NCBI RefSeq assembly: GCF_988242995.1
Contig: NZ_OZ547043.1
Direction: 5' to 3' (one strand)
DNA: 64,000 bases
Shown: positions 2,183 to 48,200 of the stretch, piece by piece
Position numbering within the stretch: position 1 is the stretch's first letter
How the letters are laid out: the number at the start of each line of letters is the position of its first letter
Program-made: the position numbers and the translations under genes
Notes under the pieces: model-generated
What the model was told of the DNA's origin: nothing
What the model saw: only the letters and a program-made list of their open reading frames with translations
Database searches by the model: none

Positions 2183-3016
2183 TCAACGTAAATGCACGCC
2201 GCTTCGCCGTCCGGCCACCAGAATAGCCTGCGATTCAACCCCTTCTTCGATCTGTTTTGCCACCCGTTGCAGCGCCGGAAGATGCTTTTCCGCTGCCTGT
2301 TCAATGGTCATTGCGCTCGCCATATACACCAGATTCAGACAGCCAATCACCCGTTGTTCACTGCGCAGCGGTACGGCAATGGAGGCGATCTTTTCTTCTT
2401 GATCCCAGCCGCGGTAGTTCTGTCCGTACCCCTCTTTGCGCGCCCGCGCCAGAATGGCTTCCAGTTTTAACGGTTCCCGTGCCAGTTGATAGTCATCACC
2501 GGGACGGGTGGCTAACATTTCGATTAATTCCTTGCGTTCTTGTTCCGGGCAAAAGGCCAGCCAGGTCAGGCCCGAGGCGGTTTTCAGGAGCGGTAAACGT
2601 CGCCCGACCATTGCCCGGTGAAAGGATAAGCGGCTGAAACGGTGAGTGGTTTCGCGTACCACCATTGCATCAACATCCAGCGTGGACACATCTGTCGGCC
2701 ATACCACTTCGCGCAACAGATCGCCCAGCAGTGGGGCCGCCAGTGCAGAAATCCACTGTTCGTCACGAAATCCTTCGCTTAATTGCCGCACTTTGATGGT
2801 CAGACGAAAACTGTCATCGGAGGGACTACGCCGGACATATCCCTCTTCCTGCAGCGTCTCCAGCAGTCGCCGCACAGTGGTGCGATGCAGGCCGCTGAGT
2901 TCCGCCAGCAGCCCGACGCTGGCACCGCCGTCAAGTTTATTTAACATATTTAATAACATTAGACCGCGGGTTAAGCCGCGTACGGTTTTGTATTCCGTCT
3001 GCTCATTGTTTTGCAT
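2183..3016 (-). CDS. mhpR: IclR-family transcriptional activator MhpR
   Basis: ORF 2183..3130; internal ATG at 3016 gives MQNNEQTEYKTVRGLTRGL..., 277 aa, divergent from mhpA. Confidence 0.88.
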   Translation of the reverse strand: MQNNEQTEYKTVRGLTRGLMLLNMLNKLDGGASVGLLAELSGLHRTTVRRLLETLQEEGYVRRSPSDDSFRLTIKVRQLSEGFRDEQWISALAAPLLGDLLREVVWPTDVSTLDVDAMVVRETTHRFSRLSFHRAMVGRRLPLLKTASGLTWLAFCPEQERKELIEMLATRPGDDYQLAREPLKLEAILARARKEGYGQNYRGWDQEEKIASIAVPLRSEQRVIGCLNLVYMASAMTIEQAAEKHLPALQRVAKQIEEGVESQAILVAGRRSGVHLR

Positions 3017-3206
3017 ATTAATTGACATTTCTATAGTTAAAACAACGTTGTGCACCTGGTGCACATTCGGGCATGTTTTGATTGTAGCCGAAAACACCCT
3101 TCCTATACTGAGCGCACAATAAAAAATCATTTACATGTTTTTAACAAAATAAGTTGCGCTGTACTGTGCGCGCAACGGCATTTTGTCCGAGTCGTGAGGT
3201 ACTGAA

Positions 3207-4871
3207 ATGGCAATACAACACCCTGACATCCAGCCTGCTGTTAACCATAGCGTTCAGGTGGCGATCGCTGGTGCCGGTCCGGTCGGGCTGATGATGGCGA
3301 ACTATCTCGGCCAGATGGGCATTGACGTGCTGGTGGTGGAGAAACTCGATAAGTTGATCGACTACCCGCGTGCGATTGGTATTGATGACGAGGCGCTGCG
3401 CACCATGCAGTCGGTTGGCCTGGTCGATAATGTTCTGCCGCACACTACGCCGTGGCACGCGATGCGTTTTCTCACCCCAAAAGGTCGCTGTTTTGCTGAT
3501 ATTCAGCCAATGACCGATGAATTTGGCTGGCCGCGCCGTAACGCCTTTATTCAGCCGCAGGTCGATGCGGTGATGCTGGAAGGATTGTCGCGTTTTCCGA
3601 ATGTGCGCTGCTTGTTTTCCCGCGAGCTGGAGGCCTTCAGCCAGCAAGATGACGAAGTGACCGTGCACCTGAAAACGGCAGAAGGGCAGCGGGAAACGGT
3701 CAAAGCCCAGTGGCTGGTGGCCTGTGATGGTGGGGCAAGTTTTGTCCGTCGCACTCTGAATGTGCCGTTTGAAGGTAAAACTGCGCCAAATCAGTGGATT
3801 GTGGTAGATATCGCCAACGATCCGTTAAGTACGCCGCATATCTATTTGTGTTGTGATCCGGTGCGCCCGTATGTTTCTGCCGCGCTGCCTCATGCGGTAC
3901 GTCGCTTTGAATTTATGGTGATGCCGGGAGAAACCGAAGAACAGCTGCGTGAGCCGCAAAATATGCGCAAGCTGTTAAGCAAAGTGCTGCCTAATCCGGA
4001 CAATGTTGAATTGATTCGCCAGCGTGTCTACACCCATAACGCGCGACTGGCGCAACGTTTCCGTATTGATCGCGTACTGCTGGCGGGCGATGCCGCGCAC
4101 ATCATGCCGGTATGGCAGGGGCAGGGCTATAACAGTGGCATGCGCGACGCCTTTAACCTTGCCTGGAAACTGGCGTTGGTTATCCAGGGGAAAGCCCGTG
4201 ATGCGCTACTCGATACCTATCAACAAGAACGTCGCGATCACGCCAAAGCGATGATTGACCTGTCCGTGACGGCGGGCAACGTGCTGGCTCCGCCGAAACG
4301 CTGGCAGGGTACGTTACGTGACGGCGTTTCCTGGCTGTTGAATTATCTGCCGCCAGTAAAACGCTACTTCCTCGAAATGCGCTTCAAGCCGATGCCGCAA
4401 TATTACGGCGGTGCGCTGGTGCGTGAGGGCGAAGCGAAGCACTCTCCGGTCGGCAAGATGTTTATTCAGCCGAAAGTCACGCTGGAAAACGGCGACGTGA
4501 CGCTGCTCGATAACGCGATCGGCGCGAACTTCGCGGTAATTGGCTGGGGATGCAATCCACTGTGGGGGATGAGCGACGAGCAAATCCAGCAGTGGCGCGC
4601 GTTGGGCACACGCTTCATTCAGGTGGTGCCGGAAGTGCAAATTCATACCGCACAGGATAACCACGACGGCGTACTACGCGTGGGCGATACGCAAGGTTGC
4701 CTGCGTAGCTGGTTCGCGCAACACAATGCTTCGCTGGTGGTGATGCGCCCGGATCGCTTTGTTGCCGCCACCGCCATTCCGCAAACCCTGGGCAAGACCC
4801 TGAATAAACTGGCGTCGGTGATGACGCTGATCCGCCCTGATGCCGACGTTTCTGTCGAAAAGGTAGCCTGA
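3207..4871 (+). CDS. mhpA: 3-(3-hydroxyphenyl)propionate hydroxylase (FAD monooxygenase)
   Basis: 554-aa ORF with N-terminal GxGxxG FAD fold ([18 protein letters not shown]); first gene of mhp operon. Confidence 0.93.
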
Positions 4872-4872
4872 T

Positions 4873-5817
4873 ATGCACGCTTATCTTCACTGTCTTTCCC
4901 ACTCGCCGCTGGTGGGGTATGTCGACCCGGCACAAGAGGTACTCGATGAGGTCAATGGCGTGATTGCCAGCGCCCGCGAGCGTATTGCGGCTTTCTCCCC
5001 TGAACTGGTGGTGCTGTTTGCGCCAGATCATTACAACGGCTTTTTCTATGACGTGATGCCACCGTTCTGTTTAGGCGTTGGAGCGACGGCAATTGGTGAT
5101 TTCGGCAGTGCGGCAGGTGAGCTGCCCGTGCCTGTGGAGCTGGCGGAGGCCTGTGCGCATGCCGTCATGAAGAGCGGAATCGATCTTGCCGTTTCTTACT
5201 GTATGCAGGTGGACCACGGGTTCGCCCAGCCGCTGGAGTTCCTGCTCGGCGGGCTGGATAAGGTGCCAGTACTGCCGGTGTTCATCAACGGTGTCGCCAC
5301 GCCGCTGCCCGGTTTCCAGCGTACCCGCATGTTGGGGGAAGCCATTGGACGTTTCACCAGCACTCTCAATAAACGCGTGCTGTTCCTTGGGTCCGGTGGG
5401 CTTTCCCATCAGCCGCCGGTGCCAGAACTGGCGAAAGCCGATGCCCATATGCGCGACCGTCTATTGGGGAGCGGGAAAGATTTACCCGCCAGTGAGCGCG
5501 AATTACGTCAGCAACGGGTGATTAGCGCCGCTGAGAAGTTTGTTGAGGATCAGAGAACGCTGCATCCGCTCAACCCGATTTGGGATAACCAGTTCATGAC
5601 TTTGCTGGAGCAGGGACGCATACAGGAACTGGATGCCGTCAGTAACGAAGAGCTTTCCGCCATTGCCGGAAAGTCGACACATGAAATCAAAACCTGGGTC
5701 GCCGCTTTTGCCGCTATTTCTGCGTTTGGCAACTGGCGTAGCGAAGGGCGTTATTACCGACCAATCCCGGAGTGGATTGCCGGATTTGGCTCGTTAAGCG
5801 CCAGAACAGAGAACTGA
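4873..5817 (+). CDS. mhpB: 3-carboxyethylcatechol 2,3-dioxygenase (extradiol)
   Basis: 314-aa ORF starting 2 nt after mhpA stop; recognised MhpB sequence. Confidence 0.93.
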
Positions 5818-35908: not shown

Positions 35909-36026
35909 AACCGCGCCCGGCGGTGAATTTTCGCTGTCGGGTGGTTTTTTTGCTGTTAGCAACCAGACTTAATGGCAGATCACGGGCGCACACGCTCATG
36001 GTTAAAACATGAAGAGGGATGGTGCT

Positions 36027-36347
36027 ATGAAAATAACATTACTGGTTACCTTGCTTTTCGGTCTGGTTTTTTTAACCACCGTCGGCGCTGCCGAGAGAAC
36101 CTTAACCCCGCAACAACAGCGTATGACCTCCTGTAATCAGCAGGCGACGGCGCATGCGTTGAAAGGGGATGCTCGTAAGACCTACATGAGTGATTGCCTG
36201 AAGAACAGCAAGTCTGCGCCTGGTGAAAAAAGTTTGACGCCACAGCAGCAAAAGATGCGCGAATGTAATAATCAAGCAACGCAACAATCTCTGAAAGGTG
36301 ATGATCGTAATAAGTTTATGAGCGCCTGCCTCAAGAAAGCCGCCTGA
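36027..36347 (+). CDS. psiF: phosphate-starvation-inducible protein PsiF
   Basis: ORF 36009..36347; ATG at 36027 gives MKITLLVTLLFGLVFLTTVGAA; two tandem ~40-aa repeats. Confidence 0.88.
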   Translation: MKITLLVTLLFGLVFLTTVGAAERTLTPQQQRMTSCNQQATAHALKGDARKTYMSDCLKNSKSAPGEKSLTPQQQKMRECNNQATQQSLKGDDRNKFMSACLKKAA

Positions 36348-36448
36348 TACCTGATAGTGCTAACGGGTGAGCTACGAAAATGGCTCACCCGAAATTTCAT
36401 ACTTCTGCCTTTAGCCCCGTCTCTATAATTTGGGAAAATTGTTTCTGA

Positions 36449-37564
36449 ATGTTCCCAAAAATAATGAATGATGAAAATTTTTTCAAAAAAGCGGCGGCGC
36501 ATGGGGAGGAACCTCCTTTAACTCCTCAAAACGAACATCAGCGATCCGGGCTGCGCTTCGCCCGTCGCGTCAGACTACCCCGCGCGGTTGGCCTGGCTGG
36601 CATGTTCTTACCGATTGCTTCAACGCTGGTTTCGCACCCGCCGCCGGGCTGGTGGTGGCTGGTGTTGGTTGGCTGGGCGTTCGTCTGGCCGCATTTAGCC
36701 TGGCAGATAGCGAGCAGGGCCGTCGATCCGCTTAGCCGGGAAATTTACAACTTAAAAACCGATGCAGTATTAGCGGGAATGTGGGTAGGCGTAATGGGCG
36801 TAAACGTGCTGCCTTCCACCGCGATGTTGATGATTATGTGTCTGAATTTGATGGGGGCAGGCGGCCCCCGTCTGTTTGTCGCGGGTCTGGTGTTGATGGT
36901 GGTTTCCTGCCTTGTCACCCTCGAACTGACGGGCATCACCGTGTCGTTCAATAGTGCGCCGCTGGAATGGTGGCTCTCCCTTCCCATTATCGTCATTTAT
37001 CCTCTGCTGTTTGGCTGGGTCAGCTACCAGACGGCGACTAAACTGGCGGAACATAAACGCAGGTTGCAGGTCATGAGTACCCGCGACGGTATGACGGGCG
37101 TGTATAACCGACGTCATTGGGAAACTATGTTACGCAATGAATTTGATAACTGTCGGCGGCATAACCGCGATGCGACATTACTGATTATCGATATCGACCA
37201 TTTCAAGAGCATCAACGATACCTGGGGCCATGATGTGGGCGATGAAGCGATTGTGGCGCTTACCCGACAGTTACAAATAACCCTGCGCGGTAGCGATGTG
37301 ATTGGTCGGTTTGGCGGCGATGAGTTTGCGGTAATCATGTCCGGTACGCCAGCTGAGAGCGCCATTACCGCCATGTTACGGGTGCATGAAGGGCTAAATA
37401 CATTACGTCTGCCGAATACGCCACAGGTAACTTTACGGATTAGTGTGGGGGTTGCGCCGCTGAACCCACAAATGAGTCACTATCGTGAGTGGTTGAAATC
37501 GGCAGATTTGGCGCTTTACAAAGCAAAGAAAGCCGGACGTAACCGCACCGAAGTGGCGGCCTGA
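36449..37564 (+). CDS. dgcC: diguanylate cyclase (GGDEF), membrane MASE2 domain
   Basis: 371-aa ORF; N-terminal TM region then GGDEF domain with RFGGDEF motif (also known as adrA/yaiC). Confidence 0.93.
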   Translation: MFPKIMNDENFFKKAAAHGEEPPLTPQNEHQRSGLRFARRVRLPRAVGLAGMFLPIASTLVSHPPPGWWWLVLVGWAFVWPHLAWQIASRAVDPLSREIYNLKTDAVLAGMWVGVMGVNVLPSTAMLMIMCLNLMGAGGPRLFVAGLVLMVVSCLVTLELTGITVSFNSAPLEWWLSLPIIVIYPLLFGWVSYQTATKLAEHKRRLQVMSTRDGMTGVYNRRHWETMLRNEFDNCRRHNRDATLLIIDIDHFKSINDTWGHDVGDEAIVALTRQLQITLRGSDVIGRFGGDEFAVIMSGTPAESAITAMLRVHEGLNTLRLPNTPQVTLRISVGVAPLNPQMSHYREWLKSADLALYKAKKAGRNRTEVAA

Positions 37565-37580
37565 CGTCCGGCAAAAGTCA

Positions 37581-38390
37581 TCAGGATTTACTGAGTTTTT
37601 CTGATTTTTCCATACACTTCGTCATCGCTTCGATCACTGCGGCACGGAAGCCTTTCTCTTCCAGTACGCGTACCGCCTCAATGGTGGTGCCTCCCGGTGA
37701 GCAGACCATATCTTTCAGTGCCCCCGGATGTTCTCCCGTTTCCAGCACCATTTTTGCGGAACCCATTACCGCCTGAGCGGCAAATTTATACGCCTGGGCG
37801 CGTGGCATCCCGCCCAGCACGGCAGCGTCGGCCATCGCTTCGATAAACATAAAGACGTAGGCTGGCGAAGAACCGCTCACACCGACCACCGGGTGGATCA
37901 TCGGCTCGGCAATTACTTCCGCTTCGCCAAAGCAGCGGAAAATATTCAGCACATCAGCGGTATCTTCTGGGGTTACCAGCGCGTTTGGCGTTACGGAGGT
38001 CATCCCGGCATTAACCAGTGCGGGAGTGTTCGGCATGGCGCGGATAATTTTCCGGTCATGGCCCAGTGCACGGGCAAGCTGGTCGAGCGTGACACCTGCT
38101 GCAATAGAAACGACCAGAGAGTCTTTATTCAGGCTGGAGGTGATTTCGCTAAGCACTTTAATCATGATGCCTGGTTTAACGGCGGCAAAAATGATGTCGG
38201 CGATTTGCGCCACTTCTTGCGCCGATTCTGCGGCGTTGATGCCGAACTGGTCATGCAGGGCGGCGACTTTATCCGGGGAGGGGGTATATACCCAGATTTG
38301 CCCTGGAAGCACCTGACCGCTGGCAATCAGACCGCCGAGAATGGCTTTTCCCATATTGCCGCAGCCAATAAAACCGATTTTCTTTTCCAT
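37581..38390 (-). CDS. proC: pyrroline-5-carboxylate reductase
   Basis: ORF 37581..38498; ATG at 38390 gives [21 protein letters not shown]..., 269 aa. Confidence 0.93.
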
Positions 38391-38509
38391 TGCCTCACTC
38401 CTGCCGTGAAATTCATTGTTTTGATAATCGCTGGCAGAAGCATAAACAGAACTATGCCGGAAGGCAAAAGCGCGACACAATAGAGGATTACCCAACAAAG
38501 GATGACTTT

Positions 38510-38968
38510 ATGACAATTTGGGTGGATGCCGACGCGTGTCCCAATGTAATTAAAGAGATTTTGTATCGCGCGGCGGAACGTATGCAGATGCCGCTGGTAC
38601 TGGTAGCAAACCAGAGTTTACGCGTGCCGCCATCGCGATTTATTCGTACGCTGCGCGTCGCGGCAGGTTTCGACGTTGCCGATAACGAAATTGTCCGGCA
38701 GTGTGAAGCGGGCGATTTGGTGATCACCGCAGATATTCCTTTGGCTGCTGAAGCCATCGAGAAAGGCGCGGCGGCGCTTAATCCACGCGGCGAACGTTAC
38801 ACGCCAGCGACCATTCGTGAGCGCCTGACGATGCGCGATTTTATGGATACCTTACGCGCCAGTGGGATCCAGACCGGTGGACCAGATAGCCTTTCACAAC
38901 GTGACCGCCAGACCTTTGCCGCGGAGCTGGAGAAGTGGTGGCTGGAAGTGCAACGTAGTCGTGGCTAA
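38510..38968 (+). CDS. yaiI: UPF0178 protein YaiI
   Basis: ORF 38390..38968; ATG at 38510 gives [24 protein letters not shown]..., 152 aa. Confidence 0.85.
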
Positions 38969-38969
38969 A

Positions 38970-39081
38970 TGTAATTTATTATTTACACTTCATTCTTGAA
39001 TATTTATTGGTATAGTAAGGGGTGTATTGAGATTTTCACTTTAAGTGGAATTTTTTCTTTACAATCGAAATTGTACTAGTT
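38970..39081 (+). promoter_or_regulatory. aroL regulatory region: TyrR boxes (38970..38987, 39046..39063) and TrpR-operator-like gtactagtt (39073..39081)
   Basis: tgtaatttattatttaca and tggaattttttctttaca fit TGTAAA-N6-TTTACA; gtactagtt resembles a trp operator half-site. Confidence 0.7.
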
Positions 39082-39150
39082 TGATGGTATGATCGCTATT
39101 CTCATGATATCGGCTTTCGCCGCATTGCGACCTATTGGGGAAAACCCACG

Positions 39151-39675
39151 ATGACACAACCTCTTTTTCTGATCGGGCCTCGGGGCTGTGGTAAAACAAC
39201 GGTCGGAATGGCCCTTGCCGATTCGCTTAACCGTCGGTTTGTCGATACCGACCAGTGGTTGCAATCACAGCTCAATATGACGGTCGCGGAGATCGTCGAA
39301 AGGGAAGAGTGGGCGGGATTCCGCGCCAGAGAAACGGCGGCGCTGGAAGCGGTAACTGCGCCATCCACCGTTATCGCTACAGGCGGCGGCATTATTCTGA
39401 CGGAATTTAATCGTCACTTCATGCAAAATAACGGGATCGTGGTTTATTTGTGTGCGCCAGTATCAGTCCTGGTTAACCGACTGCAAGCTGCACCGGAAGA
39501 AGATTTACGGCCAACCTTAACGGGAAAACCGCTGAGCGAAGAAGTTCAGGAAGTGCTGGAAGAACGCGATGCGCTATATCGCGAAGTTGCGCATATTATC
39601 ATCGACGCAACAAACGAACCCAGCCAGGTGATTTCTGAAATTCGCAGTGCCCTGGCACAGACGATCAATTGTTGA
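39151..39675 (+). CDS. aroL: shikimate kinase II
   Basis: 174-aa ORF with Walker [10 protein letters not shown]. Confidence 0.94.
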
Positions 39676-39715
39676 TTTTCGAGCGCCTATACTTAACGTT
39701 CATCCCGTGAAATAA

Positions 39716-39916
<201 letters not shown>

Positions 39917-40173
39917 CCGCATCAGACTGCTCGGAAGGGATTCTGAGTGCCACCACAAGGGATCTGCGTCACATTTTTCACAATTCATGTTTTTCAAATA
40001 ATTAGAATATTAAACAATAACAATCCATTACTGGAATCATTTGGAATCTTTACATTATGCCGTGCAGGTCTGCTGCTACGCTTTTTGTCATTTGTAGCAC
40101 AGGTAAGTGTCAGCAGTGGTGCTTAGCGCTTGCCCGGTAATTAACGACGAAATAAAAGTAAGGTGGAAGAACA

Positions 40174-40851
40174 ATGAGTGCGTCGTTGGCGATCCTGACC
40201 ATCGGCATTGTACCTATGCAGGAAGTTTTGCCGCTCCTGACAGAATACATTGACGAAGATAATATTTCCCATCATAGCCTGCTGGGGAAGTTAAGTCGTG
40301 AAGAAGTGATGGCGGAGTACGCGCCAGAAGCAGGCGAAGACACCATTCTCACATTATTAAATGACAACCAGCTGGCCCATGTTTCGCGTCGTAAAGTGGA
40401 ACGAGACCTGCAAGGTGTGGTTGAAGTGCTCGATAATCAGGGTTACGACGTCATTATATTAATGAGTACAGCAAACATTAGTAGTATGACCGCGCGTAAT
40501 ACGATCTTTCTTGAGCCGTCGCGGATATTGCCACCGCTGGTTTCCTCTATTGTTGAAGATCATCAGGTGGGGGTTATCGTTCCGGTTGAGGAGATGCTGC
40601 CCGTTCAGACGCAAAAATGGCAAATTTTGCAGAAATCGCCAGTATTTTCATTGGGTAACCCCATTCATGATTCGGAACAAAAAATCATTGATGCCGGGAA
40701 AGAATTACTGGCAAAAGGGGCTGATGTCATCATGCTGGATTGTTTAGGATTTCACCAACGTCATCGCGATTTACTGCAAAAACAGCTCGATGTTCCTGTC
40801 TTGCTCTCTAACGTATTGATTGCACGGCTGGCTGCGGAATTACTGGTGTAA
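40174..40851 (+). CDS. aroM: AroM family protein
   Basis: 225-aa [24 protein letters not shown]... Confidence 0.9.
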
Positions 40852-40922
40852 TTTTGCGTGACAGCCAGCGCCTCTGGCCCCTATAGTGAAGTAGATGTTC
40901 AACTACCAGACAGGGCTAGTTT

Positions 40923-41207
40923 ATGCTTCAAAGTAATGAGTACTTTTCAGGCAAAGTGAAATCGATCGGCTTTTCCAGCAGCAGCACTGGTCGCGCCAGC
41001 GTGGGTGTTATGGTTGAAGGTGAATACACCTTCAGCACCGCTGAGCCTGAAGAGATGACGGTAATCAGTGGTGCGCTGAATGTGTTACTGCCTGACGCGA
41101 CCGACTGGCAAGTGTATGAAGCCGGTTCGGTGTTTAATGTTCCCGGTCACAGCGAGTTTCATCTGCAAGTTGCCGAACCCACCTCTTATCTGTGCCGCTA
41201 TCTGTAA
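40923..41207 (+). CDS. ppnP: pyrimidine/purine nucleoside phosphorylase PpnP (cupin)
   Basis: 94-aa [33 protein letters not shown]... Confidence 0.9.
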
Positions 41208-41339
41208 TTCCTCGCCTTCCCCTTGAACGGGAGGGCATTTTTCTGAAATGTCCTCTCTTTAACCCATAATAATATTTCCTTTGCTGGGATTTTTTCGATT
41301 TCCGATATATTCATAATTCATCAAGGTTGATATAAATAT

Positions 41340-41694
41340 CAGCGAAGATCTCCAGATATTGTTGCGGAACTGGTTACGATAAAAGATAAATCAGATGATG
41401 AATGGTGGCGTGCTTTGCTGCAAAGTCGCAATGATCATTTGCGCCAAACGGCATTGCGCAACGCACATACCCCGGCGTCGTTGTTAACGGCATTGACTGA
41501 GCCTCAGGATCGGCGTTGGTTATTAATAATCCACAGTTGGCTGCCGATGTGAAAACGATGTGGTTAAAAGAGGAGCCATCATTACTTTTATTTGTCGATC
41601 AACCCGCTCTTTCGCTGTTACGTGATTTAGTGAAAACCGGGGCAACGCGGAAAATTCGCAGTGAAGCGCGTCACCGGCTTGAGGAAAAACAATG
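41340..41694 (+). pseudogene. frameshifted gene remnant (ykiA-like region)
   Basis: Two adjacent coding-like frames with no credible start: ...DEWWRALLQSRNDHLRQTALRNAHTPASLLTALTEPQDRRWLLIIHSWLPM* then ...KTMWLKEEPSLLLFVDQPALSLLRDLVKTGATRKIRSEARHRLEEKQ*. Confidence 0.4.
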
Positions 41695-41852
41695 ACACAA
41701 CGCCCATGGAGCAAGTTACAGCGTAAAACGCATAATATTGCTGCGCTAAAAATTATTGCCCGCCGTAGCGAATAATTATATGCCTGGTGTGGCTTCGTAC
41801 GCCGGATAAGACGCGGCAGGCGTCGCATCCGGCATTAAAGGTAAATCAGCAA

Positions 41853-42764
41853 TTAACGTTGTGCTTCGCCACCTAATCCTTCAATCAGGTTTTGAATTAA
41901 CGCTGCCAGTTCACCAGTCATCAGGATGAAATCGGCATCAAAACGCTGGGCGAAATCTTCACGGTCGATATCTTCGTTTTGATCGCGCAGCTCGTCGCAG
42001 AACTTCAGACGCTTGAGCGAACCATCGTCGCACATCACAAACTGAATGCGCTGCTGCCAGTCGAGCGCCAGTTTAGTCACCACTTTTCCGGCTTCGATGT
42101 GATTGGTGATCTCTTCGCTGGTCAGATCTTGTTTCTTCGCGCGGATCACTCCACCATCTTCCAGCAGCGATTTCAGCTCGGCTTCATCAAGCAGCTGGAA
42201 GCCCTGTGCCGCGCTGCCGGAGCGAACCCATTCGGTCAGCGTCAGTTCAATCGGGTTTTCCATGCTCAATGGTACAACCGGTAACGACCCCAGGCTTTTA
42301 CGCAGCAGTGCCAGCGTATCTTCCGCTTTTTTGGCACTGGCGCAGTCCACCATAATCAAACCGTTAACCGTGTCGATCCACATCATTGTCTGGCTAAAAC
42401 GGCTGAAAGCACGTGGCAGCAGAGAGTGCAGCACTTCGTCTTTCAGCGAATCTTTTTCGGTTTTCTTCAGCTTACGCGCCTGTTCCGCTTCCAGTTTGGC
42501 GATTTTCGCTTCCAGCGCCTGTTTAATCACCGGGGACGGGAGGATTTTTTCTTCTTTGCGCGCACAGATAACAATTTGACCATTGGCAACGTGCGTTAAC
42601 GCATCGCTGTGCGATCCCATCGGAGGTACCCAGCCCATCTTCGCCATGTCCTGGCTGCCGCATGGGGTAAATGCCATCGAGGCTAGCTGTTTTTCCATCT
42701 CTTCTGCACGCAGCGAAATCTCGCGGCTAAGACGGTAAACCATTAAATTTTTGAACCACAGCAT
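41853..42764 (-). CDS. rdgC: recombination-associated protein RdgC
   Basis: ORF 41853..42836; ATG at 42764 gives [27 protein letters not shown]..., 303 aa. Confidence 0.92.
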
Positions 42765-42888
42765 GATAATTTCCACGGCCTTGTCGTTAAATTTAGCGGG
42801 CATGATAACGAATTGTCGGCGGCCTTGCATTGCCAATCCGGTTGTCCGTCTCTACGCTATTGATATTGAAAAAAATAAGGAGAGTACC

Positions 42889-43797
42889 GTGCGTATAGGT
42901 ATCGATTTAGGCGGCACCAAAACTGAAGTGATTGCACTGGGCGATGCAGGGGAGCAGTTGTACCGCCATCGTCTGCCCACGCCGCGTGATGATTACCGCC
43001 AGACCATTGAAACGATCGCCACGCTGGTTGATATGGCGGAGCAGGCGACAGGGCAGCGCGGAACAGTGGGGATGGGCATTCCTGGCTCAATTTCGCCTTA
43101 CACCGGTGTGGTGAAGAATGCCAATTCAACCTGGCTCAACGGTCAGCCATTCGATAAAGACTTAAGCGCGAGGTTGCAGCGGGAAGTGCGGCTGGCAAAT
43201 GACGCCAACTGTCTGGCGGTTTCAGAAGCAGTAGATGGCGCGGCAGCGGGAGCGCAGACGGTATTTGCCGTGATTATCGGCACGGGATGCGGCGCGGGCG
43301 TGGCATTCAATGGGCGGGCGCATATCGGCGGCAATGGCACGGCAGGTGAGTGGGGACACAATCCGCTACCGTGGATGGACGAAGACGAACTGCGTTATCG
43401 CGAGGAAGTCCCTTGTTATTGCGGTAAACAAGGTTGTATTGAAACCTTTATTTCGGGCACGGGATTCGCTACGGATTATCGTCGTTTGAGCGGACATGCG
43501 CTGAAAGGCAGTGAAATTATCCGCCTGGTTGAAGAAAGCGATCCGGTAGCGGAACTGGCATTGCGTCGCTACGAGCTGCGGCTGGCAAAATCGCTGGCAC
43601 ATGTCGTGAATATTCTCGATCCGGATGTGATTGTCCTGGGGGGCGGGATGAGCAATGTAGACCTTTTATATCAAACGGTTCCGCAGTTGATTAAACAATT
43701 TGTCTTCGGCGGCGAATGTGAAACGCCGGTGCGTAAGGCGAAGCACGGTGATTCCAGCGGCGTACGCGGCGCTGCGTGGTTATGGCCACAAGAGTAA
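42889..43797 (+). CDS. mak: fructokinase/manno(fructo)kinase Mak (ROK family)
   Basis: ORF 42751..43797; GTG at 42889 after aaggagag RBS gives [14 protein letters not shown]..., 302 aa; ROK Cys motif CYCGKQGC. Confidence 0.9.
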
Positions 43798-43822
43798 AAA
43801 ACGTAGGCAATTGGTGCATCAT

Positions 43823-43912
43823 GCCTGATGCGACGCTTGCCGCGTCTTATCAGGCCTGCAAAATGTGCCAGAACCGCGTAGGGCGGATAAGGCGTTCACG
43901 CCGCATCCGGCA
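43823..43912. repeat. pair of REP elements in the mak-araJ intergenic region
   Basis: gcctgatgcgacgcttgccgcgtcttatcaggcctgc and gtagggcggataaggcgttcacgccgcatccggca; includes atcaggcctgc at 43849..43859. Confidence 0.75.
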
Positions 43913-43939
43913 ATAAGCAACGTGCTCCGTGACTGCAAT

Positions 43940-45124
43940 CTACCCCACTGGTTTCGCCAGCACCGGACTATCCGCCGCTTGCTGGCGCTTATAGCGACCA
44001 TACAGCAGCAACGACGACATCGCAGCAAACGAAAGCAGGGCGGCAGGTAGCGCCACGTAATTATATGCCAGCCCCAGCGTCAGCATCATACCACCGCAAT
44101 ATGCGCCGACGGCGCTACCGAGGTTAAACGCTATTTGCCCACCTGCGGCACCTAATAACTCTCCGCCTTTGGCATTTTGCAGTAACAATATTTGCAGTGG
44201 TGCTGAAAGGGCAAATAATCCCGCGCAACAAATAAATGCAAAAATAAGCGACGTTGTTTTCATGCCGCCGAAGAAAAAGAGCATCAGCAGTGCCAGCACA
44301 ATAATAAAGTCAGTTACTGCCGCAATGCGCAGTGGTGAATAACGTCCTGAAATCCGGCCACTTAGCACATTCCCCAGCACCATCCCTAGCCCAACTAACA
44401 TCATAATAAAAGTCATCGCCGTTTCCGAAAAACCGGAAATAAACATCATGTATGGCTTTACGTAGCTGAACCAGGCAAATACACCTGCGTTGCCAAACAT
44501 GGTGGCGGCGAAAATTAACCACGGGGCCGGGCTGCGCAAAAAGTGAAATTGTTCGCGTAGCTTCCCTTTCGCCTCGTCGCGAATATCCGGCACCCAAAAA
44601 TAGACCGATGCCATCACCGCAATATTAAAAACAGCGATCAATAAAAAGGTGTAACGCCAGCTAAATTCCTGACTTAAATACGTTCCCAGCGGAATGCCCA
44701 GCAAATTGGCGACTGTCATCCCGGAAACCATCCCCGCCACGGCGGCGGTGACTTTGCCGGGTTTGATAATTTTTGATAACACGATCGCGCCGACGCCAAA
44801 AAATGCGCCATGCGGAAAGCCGGAAACCAGCCGACTAATGGCGAGCATCAGGTAAGACGAAGAGAGCGTGAACATGGCGTTGCCAATGACGCACAACGCC
44901 ACCAGAAACAACAAGATATGTTTGAGCGAGTAGCGACTGGAAAAGAGGGCGATGATTGGCGCACCGACCACCACCCCCAGCGCATAATACGAGATCATAT
45001 GCCCGGCAGCAGGAATCGAAATTCCTACGTTATGCGCCAGCTCCGTGAGCACGCCCATAATGCCAAATTCGGCCATCCCCAAACCAAACGTGCCCAGAGC
45101 CAAAGATAAAATGACTTTTTTCAT
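43940..45124 (-). CDS. araJ: MFS transporter AraJ
   Basis: ORF 43940..45208; ATG at 45124 gives MKKVILSLALGTFGLGMAEF..., 394 aa, 12 TM. Confidence 0.9.
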   Translation of the reverse strand: MKKVILSLALGTFGLGMAEFGIMGVLTELAHNVGISIPAAGHMISYYALGVVVGAPIIALFSSRYSLKHILLFLVALCVIGNAMFTLSSSYLMLAISRLVSGFPHGAFFGVGAIVLSKIIKPGKVTAAVAGMVSGMTVANLLGIPLGTYLSQEFSWRYTFLLIAVFNIAVMASVYFWVPDIRDEAKGKLREQFHFLRSPAPWLIFAATMFGNAGVFAWFSYVKPYMMFISGFSETAMTFIMMLVGLGMVLGNVLSGRISGRYSPLRIAAVTDFIIVLALLMLFFFGGMKTTSLIFAFICCAGLFALSAPLQILLLQNAKGGELLGAAGGQIAFNLGSAVGAYCGGMMLTLGLAYNYVALPAALLSFAAMSSLLLYGRYKRQQAADSPVLAKPVG

Positions 45125-45249
45125 ACCACCATCACAACCACCAGAACGGCTACCAATCACCGTAGCCAATAAAGTGATAGCTTGCAGGATAACGACCAGC
45201 AAGGCCAAGAGATAATTCGCCCCTCTGTATTCATTATCCTGCTGAATAG

Positions 45250-48200
45250 TTATTTCACTGCAAACGTACTTTCCAGTTTGCTGTAGCCCAGGCCGTTGAT
45301 CTTTTTCACTTTGATCTGCACCGGAATACGCTCTTTCATCGCTTCTACGTGGCTAATCACACCAATGGTTTTGCCACTGGCGTTCAGGGCATCCAGCGCA
45401 TCAAGGGCGGTATCCAGCGTTTCGCTATCCAGCGTGCCAAAACCTTCATCAAGAAACAGCGAGTCAATACGCGTTTTATGGCTGACCAGATCTGAAAGCG
45501 CCAGTGCCAGCGCCAGACTGACGAGGAAACTCTCGCCACCGGAAAGGGTACGGGTATCGCGTACCGCATCTGCCTGCCAGGTATCAACAACCTCGACTTC
45601 CAGCGCCTCGCTGGCTTTGCGCTGTAACAGATAGCGCCCGTGCAGCCGGGTAAGTTGCTGATTAGCGAGATGGACTAAATTATCCAGCGTCAGTCCTTGG
45701 GCAAACTTGCGGAATTTATCGCCCTCTTTGGAACCTATTAGCGAATTCAGATATCCCCAGTCCTCAACCTGCTGCGTCATTTGAGCAATTTGCTGCATTA
45801 AGGTTTGTTGTTGCTGACGGTTGTCTGCATCCTGCTTCAGCTGCTGGCGAATTTCCCCCTGGCGAGTGGTGTTTTCACGCAACTTTTGCTGAGTTTGCGC
45901 TAACGCTTGCTGAATCTGTTCCACCGTCACCGTGAGATCCAGCCCGCCAGGTCGGTGTTGCTGATGCTGTGCCAGCGTTTCAGCTGTCTGAATGACCAAC
46001 ACTTGCGCCTGACGACGCTGGTTTTCCAGATTCTGTTTCAGCTGTTCCAGCTGCGTTAGCGTCTGCTCATCCATTAACGCCGCAAGAAATGCCTGCTGAT
46101 CGTCAAAAATGCTGTCCTGTAGCGCGGTGTCAAACTGCGCCTGGGCTTTTTGCAGACTTTGCGCCGCCAGAACGTCCTGTTGCTGTAACGTCTGCTGCTG
46201 GCTGTGTAATGCGAGACATTGTTCATGAACCTGCCGCCAGTTTTCCAGCACCACAGTTTCTTCGCTGTGCGGGAGTTCATCACTTTGCGGCAACGTTTCC
46301 AGAATCGGCGTCAGTTGCTGAATACGGTTTTGCAGCGCGGTTAATTCGTTCTGGCGATGCTGCCAGCTCTGCGCTTCTTGCTGACGCGTCGCCAACCAGC
46401 TCTCTTCTTCATCTTCCTGTGGCAATGTCAGTGCATAACCCGCCAATGCCGTTAAGAGCTGCTGCTGGCGTTGTTCAATTTGCTGTTGATACTGGATAAT
46501 TTGCTGATTATGCGCGGCAATCTGCCCTTGTAATTCATGCCGTTGGCTGAGTAACCGCAGCTGGCGTTCGTGCTCATCTTGTGCATCCAGCCACGGTTGA
46601 ATATCGTCCTGTGGCTGCAAGGTGATATTGAGGCTGGCCGTGACGGCTTGCCATTGTTGAGTAAGTGCTTGCTCATCTTGTCGGAGGCTTTGCGCTTCGT
46701 TTTCATCGCGCTGAAGCTGCTTCGTTAATGCATCCAGTTGCCCACGTAGCGCCGCACCTTCTTCGCCGAGCTTTTTCACTTCTTTTTCCAGCGTTAATAG
46801 CCGGGCCTGATTAACGCCCGGTTCCAGCGCCTGATACGCCTCGACCGTCGGGTGGCTGGTGGAACCACAAAGTGGACAAGGCTGACCCGCCTGTAACTGC
46901 GCGCGCTGGGCTTCCAGCGTTTTGATGCGCGCTTCCTGCTCGCAAATGGTTTTGACATCGGCAAGTTGTTGCGTTTTTTCTTTATAACGCTGACGCATTT
47001 CGTTAAGTGCGGCGTTACGTTGCGTCTGTTCTTGCGTGATATTCTGGATAGCGACCTGTAATTGCGCCAGACGTTTTTGTTGGGGGACAATCTGCCCATG
47101 CAGCGCGACCAGGCGCTGTCGCAGTGGGCGTTGCTCAGCATGTTGCGCCAGGGCGCTAGCAACTTCATCGGCGGTTAACGTCAACGTGATCGCCGCAAGC
47201 GCATTAAGTTTTTGCTCTGCATGGGTTAACTGTTGCTGCCATTGCCGCAGATGTTCGCGATCGCTGGTTTGTTGGGAGAACTGCGCACGCCAACCCGCCA
47301 GTTCGTTGTTCCACTGACGGAAGCGGTCGTGTTCCTGTAGCCAGGCATTCAGGCTTTGTTGCTGCTGCTGTAATTCTGCTGACTGCTTCGCCGCGTGGTG
47401 GCGAATGCTCGCGCGAAGCGCCATTGTGCTCTGTAAGCGAGTATTTACTTCTTCAATCTGCTGGCGAGTATGCGCCAGCGCCGCGCTGTGTTCTGCGATG
47501 CGTTCCCAGTGCGGACGAAGATTTCGTGCCGGTTGTGCCAGACTGAGCGCCGCCAGTTGAGGTTGCGCTTTTTCTTCTACGGCTAACGCCTGTTGCAAGG
47601 CCTGTTGACGGCGGCTGGCTTCTTGCTGCAATTCGTCCAGACGCGTTAACCAGTTTAGTGATTGTTGTTCTTGCTGCTGCGCGGTAAGTAACTGTTTTTC
47701 TTCGTCAGTAAGTACCTGCAAACTCGTTGTCAGCGATTGCACTTGTTCTGGCGTGAGCAACGCGACGCCGCTGGCCTGCGCTTGCAGCTTCTCCAGCTCT
47801 GTGCGGGCTGATTTGTGCTGCTCAAAAACCATCGCCGAGATTTGCCCGTAGATTTCAGTGCCAGTTAACTCCTCGAGCAATTCCGCGCGTTCTTTGGGTT
47901 TGGCATTCAGGAAGGCAGCAAATTGCCCCTGCGAAAGCAGCATCGAACGGGTGAAGCGCCCGTAATCCAGTCCGGTTAACGTCGCCGTCAGTTCCAGCTT
48001 ATCTTTCACTTTGTCGGCGAGAATTTTGCCGTCGGCGCAGCGCGCCAGCTCTACGCGTGGCACCTGCAAATTACCGTCGGGCTGGTTACGCGCCCGATTC
48101 TGGCTCCAGAACGCGCGATACGCTTCACCTTTCACTTCAAACTCCACCTCCGCCAGACATTCGGCGGTATCGCGGGTCATGAGATCATTTTGCGATTGTG

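Follow-up and report, generated by a model that had tools for sequence, protein, structure and literature searches.

The ppnP–rdgC spacer of an Escherichia chromosome segment as the probable debris of a two-gene insert: the ykiA pseudogene and the deletion relic ykiD

The spacer between ppnP and rdgC at positions 41208-41852 (645 bp, all of it under study) of the window (the whole 64,000-nucleotide stretch analyzed here, from contig NZ_OZ547043.1 of RefSeq assembly GCF_988242995.1) very probably consists of non-functional debris from an insert of two genes that formerly occupied the ppnP–rdgC gap and decayed stepwise. The proposed ancestor would have had the organization ppnP terminator–promoter–759-codon exported-protein gene–ATGA-coupled 151-codon SF0329 gene–REP–rdgC, and the insert would have been lower in G+C than its surroundings (42-45% in both ancestral genes versus 51% in the window). 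Three steps would lead from it to the present spacer: (i) deletion 1 between imperfect 10-bp repeats, which would have taken away the large gene's start codon and its codons 1-646 while promoter and leader stayed; (ii) deletion 2 (372 bp, in frame) between AGTTAC(A/G)GCG repeats, which would have collapsed the SF0329 gene to the 27-codon ykiD; and (iii) the loss of 1 bp in a G run in the window lineage, which would have broken the ykiA remnant into two frames. Slipped-strand or illegitimate recombination at short repeats may have produced both deletions, as suggested by the junction sequences. The ykiA pseudogene and ykiD are already known, and both are annotated in RefSeq; the locus illustrates, in textbook fashion, how genes at a variable site of the E. 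coli chromosome are lost step by step at short repeats, but it carries little biological weight and would not surprise specialists. Added here were the anatomy of the two repeat-linked deletions, a living intermediate, a private frameshift, the origin of YkiD from SF0329, and a structural sketch of the lost protein.

The window was a segment of an Escherichia chromosome containing aroL, yaiA, aroM, ppnP, rdgC, mak, and araJ. Against a collection of 5,426 complete E. coli genomes, to which all genome counts refer unless otherwise stated, its region 36000-47000 reached at best 98.6% identity over 11 kb, and the lineage of the window appeared to be poorly represented there; it may be a Shigella or an unusual phylogroup. 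The same region had many extra match places per genome, which were probably due to REP-type repeats. The features recognized in and around the spacer were collected in Table 1; the sequence of the terminator-like hairpin was kept in K-12-like and O157 loci in the alignment.

Table 1. Features of the ppnP–rdgC spacer and its borders (positions in the window)
Feature	Position	Strand	Remarks
ppnP	40923-41207	+	Upstream neighbor of the spacer
Terminator-like hairpin and T run	41214-41236	+	8-pair stem with 6 G-C pairs, tail ATTTTTCTGA; directly 3' of the ppnP stop codon
Retained 5' regulatory/leader DNA of the lost DUF2773 gene ("ykiA promoter region")	41237-41349	+	Collinear with O157 to the base before the ATG
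Sigma-70-like promoter site	41243-41270	+	CTGAAA-16-CATAAT, consensus match
Deletion-1 junction	41340-41354	+	Imperfect 10-bp direct repeat, one copy (CAGCGAAGAT, 41340-41349), then CTCCA (41350-41354)
Old Shine-Dalgarno-like GAAGA	41344-41348	+	Start codon of the large gene gone
ykiA pseudogene	41355-41695	+	Tail of the 759-codon DUF2773 gene (last 113 codons), 94.6% identical to O157 codons 647-759
Frameshift site	41512-41514	+	1-bp deletion, GGG/GGT to GG (alignment gap); first frame then runs to TGA 41550-41552
Shine-Dalgarno GAGG	41681-41684	+	Located within the ykiA remnant (3' end), 7 nt before the ATG shared by ykiD and SF0329; same in intact loci
ykiD	41692-41775	+	Intact 27-codon ORF MTQRPWSKLQRKTHNIAALKIIARRSE; ATG overlaps the ykiA stop (ATGA)
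Deletion-2 junction	41714-41723	+	10-bp direct repeat AGTTAC(A/G)GCG, one copy left
REP-type palindrome GCCGGATAAGACGCGGCAGGCGTCGCATCCGGC	~41801-41835		Between convergent ykiD and rdgC
rdgC	Stop at 41853	-	Downstream neighbor, convergent with ykiD

Two adjacent coding-like frames had been proposed for the spacer before any database search, and both peptides were present as quoted: peptide 1 (...DEWWRALLQSRNDHLRQTALRNAHTPASLLTALTEPQDRRWLLIIHSWLPM*) was in the frame of 41208 and ended at the TGA at 41550-41552, and peptide 2 (...KTMWLKEEPSLLLFVDQPALSLLRDLVKTGATRKIRSEARHRLEEKQ*) was in the frame of 41210 and ended at TGA 41693-41695. Peptide 1 matched positions 1-22 of the Pfam model DUF2773 (PF10971; E=2.3e-6, 28.1 bits), and peptide 2 matched positions 23-81 of it (E=2.6e-29, 101.6 bits), so that both exceeded the gathering score of 25 bits with the match split over two frames; because the two peptides covered consecutive parts of one model, they would derive from one coding sequence split by a frameshift and not from chance. 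The reading frame of the ykiA remnant was composed of 41355-41513 in one frame and 41514-41695 in the next (stop TGA 41693-41695), and restoration of the frame gave a 113-aa translation. The lack of a credible start, also proposed earlier, was borne out: the open frame of peptide 1 started after TGA 41328-41330, no ATG or GTG was found in the frame of 41208 between that TGA and peptide 1, and the earliest listed start was the TTG at 41415. At 41343-41345, K-12-like strains had TGA (within CAGTGAAGAT) and the window had CGA, and the open frame of the window consequently reached up to TGA 41328-41330, still startless.

The features of a pseudogene were found together at this locus, namely a homologous intact gene at the same place in relatives, the loss of the ATG and codons 1-646, and a frameshift with a premature stop. 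The signal peptide, beta-helix, and long alpha-solenoid of a full-length DUF2773-family gene were not encoded in one frame here, the 113 codons left being a fragment of a member. The presence of K-12 ykiA at this place, named in the original prediction, agreed with the RefSeq annotation of K-12-like relatives, in which the stretch had the same junction and the same 113 codons and was labeled [quoted passage not shown]. The window and K-12 ykiA (b0392) shared the position between ppnP and rdgC, the deletion junction, and the 113 residual codons (DNA identity 96.5% over 751 bp), but the window differed in its added 1-bp deletion at 41512-41514 and a few private substitutions, one of them the TGA to CGA change at 41343-41345. 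Compared to the O157:H7 DUF2773 protein (WP_120795310.1, 759 aa; homologues ~750-800 aa), the window encoded the final 113 residues but had none of the predicted signal peptide or predicted beta-helix domain (~67-176) and was without most of the predicted LRV/HEAT solenoid. With no start codon and a frameshift, the ykiA remnant would yield no protein of consequence. The appropriate annotation of the window would be an intact ykiD next to a ykiA pseudogene with a frameshift; two novel ORFs should not be called here.

The ppnP–rdgC spacer of O157:H7 was 2,953 bp in length and contained two intact genes: one for a 759-aa DUF2773 protein (at 2863-5142 of the O157:H7 locus sequence L005) and one for a 149-aa SF0329-family protein, WP_001303823.1, that overlapped the stop of the former by ATGA. 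The intact 759-codon gene was located between ppnP and rdgC in O157:H7, EC42405, wlxctx60, and Escherichia sp. E4930. The synteny comparison thus placed an intact ancestor at the same locus, and the earlier view of the spacer as the 3' part of a larger gene that had survived a deletion was upheld by BLASTN against the O157 locus, which gave three alignment blocks with two deletions between them: (i) window 40901-41349, covering ppnP and the spacer to the base before the large-gene ATG; (ii) window 41355-41723, covering large-gene codons 647-759 and the first 11 SF0329 codons; and (iii) window 41714-41984, covering the final 16 SF0329 codons, the REP, and the end of rdgC. Compared to the 2953 bp of O157:H7, the 645-bp spacer of the window was 2,308 bp shorter, and this was fully accounted for as 1934 + 372 + 1 + 1, the last two terms being 1-bp differences. 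That prediction had assumed the remnant of one gene, and its DUF2773 part was right, but the spacer held a second relic (SF0329 to ykiD) that had been missed.

In deletion 1, 1,939 bp were replaced by 5 nt (net ~1.93 kb); the large gene lost its start codon and codons 1-646, while the regulatory DNA upstream was kept. Intact alleles contained the imperfect repeat CAGTGA(A/G)GAT twice, as CAGTGAAGAT followed by TATG at the start codon and as CAGTGAGGAT followed by AGCGATATT at codons ~644-646, and one copy of it was left at the junction. The adjoining CTCCA matched neither flank, and the sampled intact alleles predicted AGC in its place; the deletion-1 event would therefore have been more complex, or the parental allele was unsampled. 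The junction string GAAGATCTCCAG was common to K-12-type, deletion-1-only, and form-C loci (see below). Deletion 2 removed 372 bp (124 codons; SF0329 codons 12-135) in frame between the two copies of a 10-bp repeat, present in intact alleles as AGTTACAGCG near the 5' end and AGTTACGGCG near the 3' end of SF0329, and alignment blocks 2 and 3 overlapped by the 10 bp of this repeat. Short direct repeats at both end-points with one copy kept, as in a microhomology deletion, were found for deletions 1 and 2, with 5 unexplained nucleotides at deletion 1.

The allele forms of the spacer were surveyed in the genome collection, in which megablast of 41150-41900 gave a match in 5,424 of the 5,426 genomes. 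The 5' segment removed by deletion 1 was present in 447/5,426 genomes (405 of them at >=99% identity to the O157 allele), the large gene being intact in ~8% of complete E. coli genomes, and the SF0329 interior was present in 921/5,426. A synthetic query for the deletion-1-only intermediate (remnant ykiA plus full SF0329) was matched end to end in one piece in 54/5,426 genomes. By subtraction, ~4,490/5,426 genomes would carry the K-12/window form with both deletions, and ~420/5,426 would carry form C; the latter (e.g., strain 503025, L004 660-1360) had the deletion-1 junction and a full-length but frameshifted SF0329, with the remaining ykiA codons lost (GCGGAACTG joined to ATGACAC). Since the predicted intermediate existed in 54 genomes, the decay would have been stepwise; judged from these alleles, deletion 1 came first, and deletion 2 and the form-C deletion would be alternative later steps. 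The reverse order, with the intact form derived by insertion into an ancestor resembling the remnant, is implausible, since the remnant ran collinear with the 3' ends of both genes.

Independent lesions beyond the two deletions were the window frameshift, a nonsense codon in MRY15-117, a 3-bp deletion along with W-to-C changes in the remnants at the more divergent loci L019 and L020, and IS1/IS3 insertions elsewhere; in MRY15-117, an intermediate, SF0329 was intact at 151 aa while the ykiA remnant had its own internal stop. Such independent extra lesions in the remnants fit neutral decay. Over the 113 codons, the restored window remnant had 11 non-synonymous and 7 synonymous nucleotide differences from the O157 allele, and pN/pS was 0.3-1.1 among remnants and 0.25-0.43 among intact alleles, counts too small to prove relaxed selection. 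The K-12-like remnant differed from the intact wlxctx60 allele at 2/342 nt, and a single old deletion would thus need later recombination to account for the allele diversity. In strain E400634 (L007), both genes were full length and both were frameshifted. The O157:H7 SF0329 gene (L005 2417-2866) had an extra A in an A run near its 3' end and ended in ...ALKNYCPP (149 aa), compared to ...ALKIIARRSE (151 aa) in other intact alleles; even this "intact" copy thus appeared slightly damaged.

The frame break had been placed near 41550 in the original prediction, and this position had to be corrected: the lesion was at 41512-41514, ~37 bp upstream, and 41550 was merely where the first frame met a stop. 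In alignment with its closest relative 18KM2445 (98.9% identical) and a K-12-like strain, the window lacked one base in GGATCGG[G/T]CGTTGG. The frameshifted version was found in 0/5,426 complete E. coli genomes with two short queries (every 28-mer spanning the site), while the same query with the G restored, as a positive control, matched 330 genomes; the first 41-nt frameshift query was possibly weakened by low-complexity masking of TTATTAATAAT, and the redesigned query was the one checked by this control. The frameshift would accordingly be a private change of the window sequence, not a part of the common ykiA remnant. Programmed frameshifting was rejected as its explanation: no slippery heptamer was found at 41512-41514, relatives kept one continuous frame, and a start codon was missing anyway. 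It is unlikely that the frame break was a sequencing or assembly error and that the true DNA has the uninterrupted 113-codon remnant of K-12; a single-base lesion in a homopolymer (GGG to GG), seen in 0/5,426 complete genomes against 330 with GGG, would look like such an error, but runs of only 3 bases are short for homopolymer errors, lineage-private changes are to be expected in a window that is <=98.6% identical over 11 kb to any genome of the collection, the window remnant had other private substitutions (A-to-V, D-to-E, and D-to-A among them, compared to the nearest allele), and other remnants had disabling lesions of their own. The locus stays a pseudogene whether the frame break is real or an error.

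The DNA upstream of deletion 1 still harbored the promoter and leader of the lost gene (Table 1). According to PMC3950696, the K-12 ykiA promoter was active and was activated by BglJ-RcsB, as determined by lacZ fusions, 5'-RACE start mapping, and binding-site mutagenesis, and "ykiA, unknown function, 113 aa" was listed there for K-12. Transcription of the spacer from this surviving BglJ-RcsB-responsive promoter may still be possible. That ykiA is a real small gene, the remnant being translated into a ~113-aa protein as assumed in older K-12 annotation, is nevertheless extremely improbable: K-12-type remnants kept an open 113-codon frame, the promoter was active and regulated according to PMC3950696, and an in-frame ATT (41358-41360) lay 9 nt after GAAGA, but the 5' end offered no ATG, GTG, or TTG, the window was frameshifted and MRY15-117 had an internal stop, ~420 genomes (form C) had lost the remnant entirely, the sequence was the tail of a 759-aa solenoid with 3-4 helical repeats out of context, and RefSeq labels ykiA a pseudogene.

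The second relic, ykiD, was composed of SF0329 residues 1-11 plus the final 16 residues of the 151-aa form (non-O157 strains), and YkiD would thus be an in-frame internal-deletion relic of the SF0329 gene, as read from the aligned DNA; a statement of this derivation was not found in the literature searched. Its 27-aa product matched none of the Pfam/NCBIfam models, those of SF0329 (PF25753 / NF049912) included, and its descent was visible only in the DNA and in the 11+16 terminal residues. Compared to the SF0329 family, ykiD shared the first 11 and last 16 codons, the ribosome-binding site, and the position, but it was without 124/151 codons and had no HMM match left. The product was identical to YkiD in Table 1 of PMC6001520 and at the RefSeq WP_120795376.1 loci, and RefSeq calls the ORF "protein YkiD" in K-12-like strains. 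YkiD of MG1655 was detected by chromosomal SPA tagging plus immunoblot (PMC6001520). An intact small ORF with expression evidence, which the original prediction had named as counting against a decayed remnant, was therefore present in the spacer as ykiD, detected by SPA tag in K-12, but it was located downstream of both peptides and was itself a deletion relic.

The window and K-12 shared the amino-acid sequence of YkiD, the ATGA overlap with the ykiA stop, and the flanks, with 2 synonymous and 0 non-synonymous changes between the two ykiD alleles; the difference was that the upstream frame in the window ended 140 nt earlier, expression being known in MG1655 only. With this earlier end, any translational coupling of ykiA and ykiD would be lost: a ribosome reading the ykiA remnant would terminate 140 nt upstream, and ykiD of the window would rely on its own Shine-Dalgarno sequence. 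Translation from this sequence and the ATG, as in K-12, may still be possible. It would most likely be a harmless by-product and not a selected function, an absence of function that we infer for a protein that is made in K-12. As a deletion relic, YkiD is a caution that translated does not imply functional.

Co-option of the relic was also weighed. It is quite unlikely that promoter and leader were kept because they drive a functional 27-aa YkiD salvaged from both SF0329 ends, and the specific proposal that the N- and C-terminal parts of an immunity-type SF0329 protein were salvaged as a micro-protein, ykiD, and kept under the BglJ-RcsB-responsive promoter is very unlikely. Such a salvage would be consistent with several observations: the native Shine-Dalgarno sequence and ATG of YkiD and its detectable production in K-12, the exactly in-frame deletion 2, the 2 synonymous and 0 non-synonymous changes between window and K-12, and Escherichia sp. 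E4930, in which SF0329 was independently shortened to a 21-codon ORF that kept the same 16-18 residues at its C-terminus. These were outweighed by the following: (i) conservation of ykiD was not strong, as the allele of the ST131 (phylogroup B2) locus L018 and of the more divergent L019 and L020 differed from the K-12 allele at 3/27 residues and ended at 26 aa, one shorter; (ii) ~870 genomes had no ykiD and kept SF0329 or form C; (iii) an in-frame outcome has a 1-in-3 chance; (iv) the SF0329 3' end was perhaps retained only because it abuts the REP and rdgC; (v) no Pfam/NCBIfam model matched YkiD; and (vi) detection of small ORFs was uncorrelated with conservation in VanOrsdel et al. 2018 (PMC6001520). 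Decay without a selected product was the preferred reading of ykiD. If the salvage were true, the 21-codon ORF of E4930 would be a parallel case, and the locus would exemplify small-protein birth from gene wreckage. In the cryptic-clade strain E4930 (L012 6276-6341), the independent SF0329 deletion left ATGAGGTTACGGCGTAAAACA..., encoding MRLRRKTHNIAALKIIIRRSE, and the large gene was intact there (73% identity).

The lost large protein had very few close relatives, which were Escherichia plus one homologue at 49% identity in another locus. An exhaustive HMMER scan gave 169 cluster representatives, of which ~40 spanned the full length (735-819 aa) and were 18-35% identical. Homologues of the large protein matched LRV_2, LRV, and HEAT repeats, and 28/43 aligned homologues began with a signal-peptide-like hydrophobic segment ending in AxA, followed by a conserved (E/D)W motif. 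A single-sequence AlphaFold model of the 759-aa ancestor was unusable (pLDDT 42.7), and the model based on the 43-sequence alignment (pLDDT 91.5, pTM 0.80) was used instead; it displayed an N-terminal helix, a beta-rich domain (~67-176), and an alpha-solenoid (186-759), within which the ykiA remnant made up 3-4 helical repeats. The large protein is thereby predicted to be exported and to consist of a beta-helix and then a leucine-rich-repeat-variant (LRV)/HEAT solenoid, and an exported binding or scaffold protein would be the best reading of it. No conserved gene neighborhood of its homologues was found in the neighborhoods examined. The Pfam DUF2773 model (81 positions) covered only the extreme C-terminus of this ~750-800-aa family, the part that survives in K-12, and the definition of this "domain" appears to rest on the K-12 pseudogene fragment; the real family would be the ~750-800-aa beta-helix plus LRV/HEAT protein, predicted to be exported.

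The SF0329 family (Pfam PF25753, NCBIfam NF049912; example WP_061092858.1, 151 aa) was broader, counting at least 540 homologues that were 55-66% identical across distant phyla, and its conservation across such distances was unusually strong. Its homologues in Leminorella (L010), Paenibacillus (L013), and a metagenome contig (L015) belonged to arrays of small genes on the same strand, together with Imm10, SUKH-3, DUF2314, and WGR-DUF4240, adjoined once by an integrase. Because these arrays had the typical look of immunity genes, SF0329 looks like an immunity-type gene from an array resembling those of polymorphic-toxin immunity genes. A PDB sequence search for a solved structure of SF0329 gave nothing significant, PADLOC and PHROGs models gave no match for either ancestral protein, and a literature search on SF0329 (PF25753), DUF2773 (PF10971), and the O157 locus tags gave nothing relevant.

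The remaining candidates in the spacer were set aside. A structured-RNA explanation was rejected, since Rfam gave only a sub-threshold REP-related match and noise. An antisense ORF of 101 codons (41523-41828, - strand) covered ykiD and the tail of ykiA; it began inside the REP palindrome, was unannotated in every relative examined, and was rejected as a gene and treated as spurious. The REP-type hairpin had a minimum free energy of -30.9 kcal/mol (z = -2.9) on folding, and its match to Rfam naRNA4, a REP-derived family, was partial (27.8 bits versus a gathering score of 59.5). The palindrome appeared to resemble the REP consensus, a G+C-rich imperfect palindrome GCCGGATAAG...CATCCGGC, and it was found in intact and deleted loci alike.
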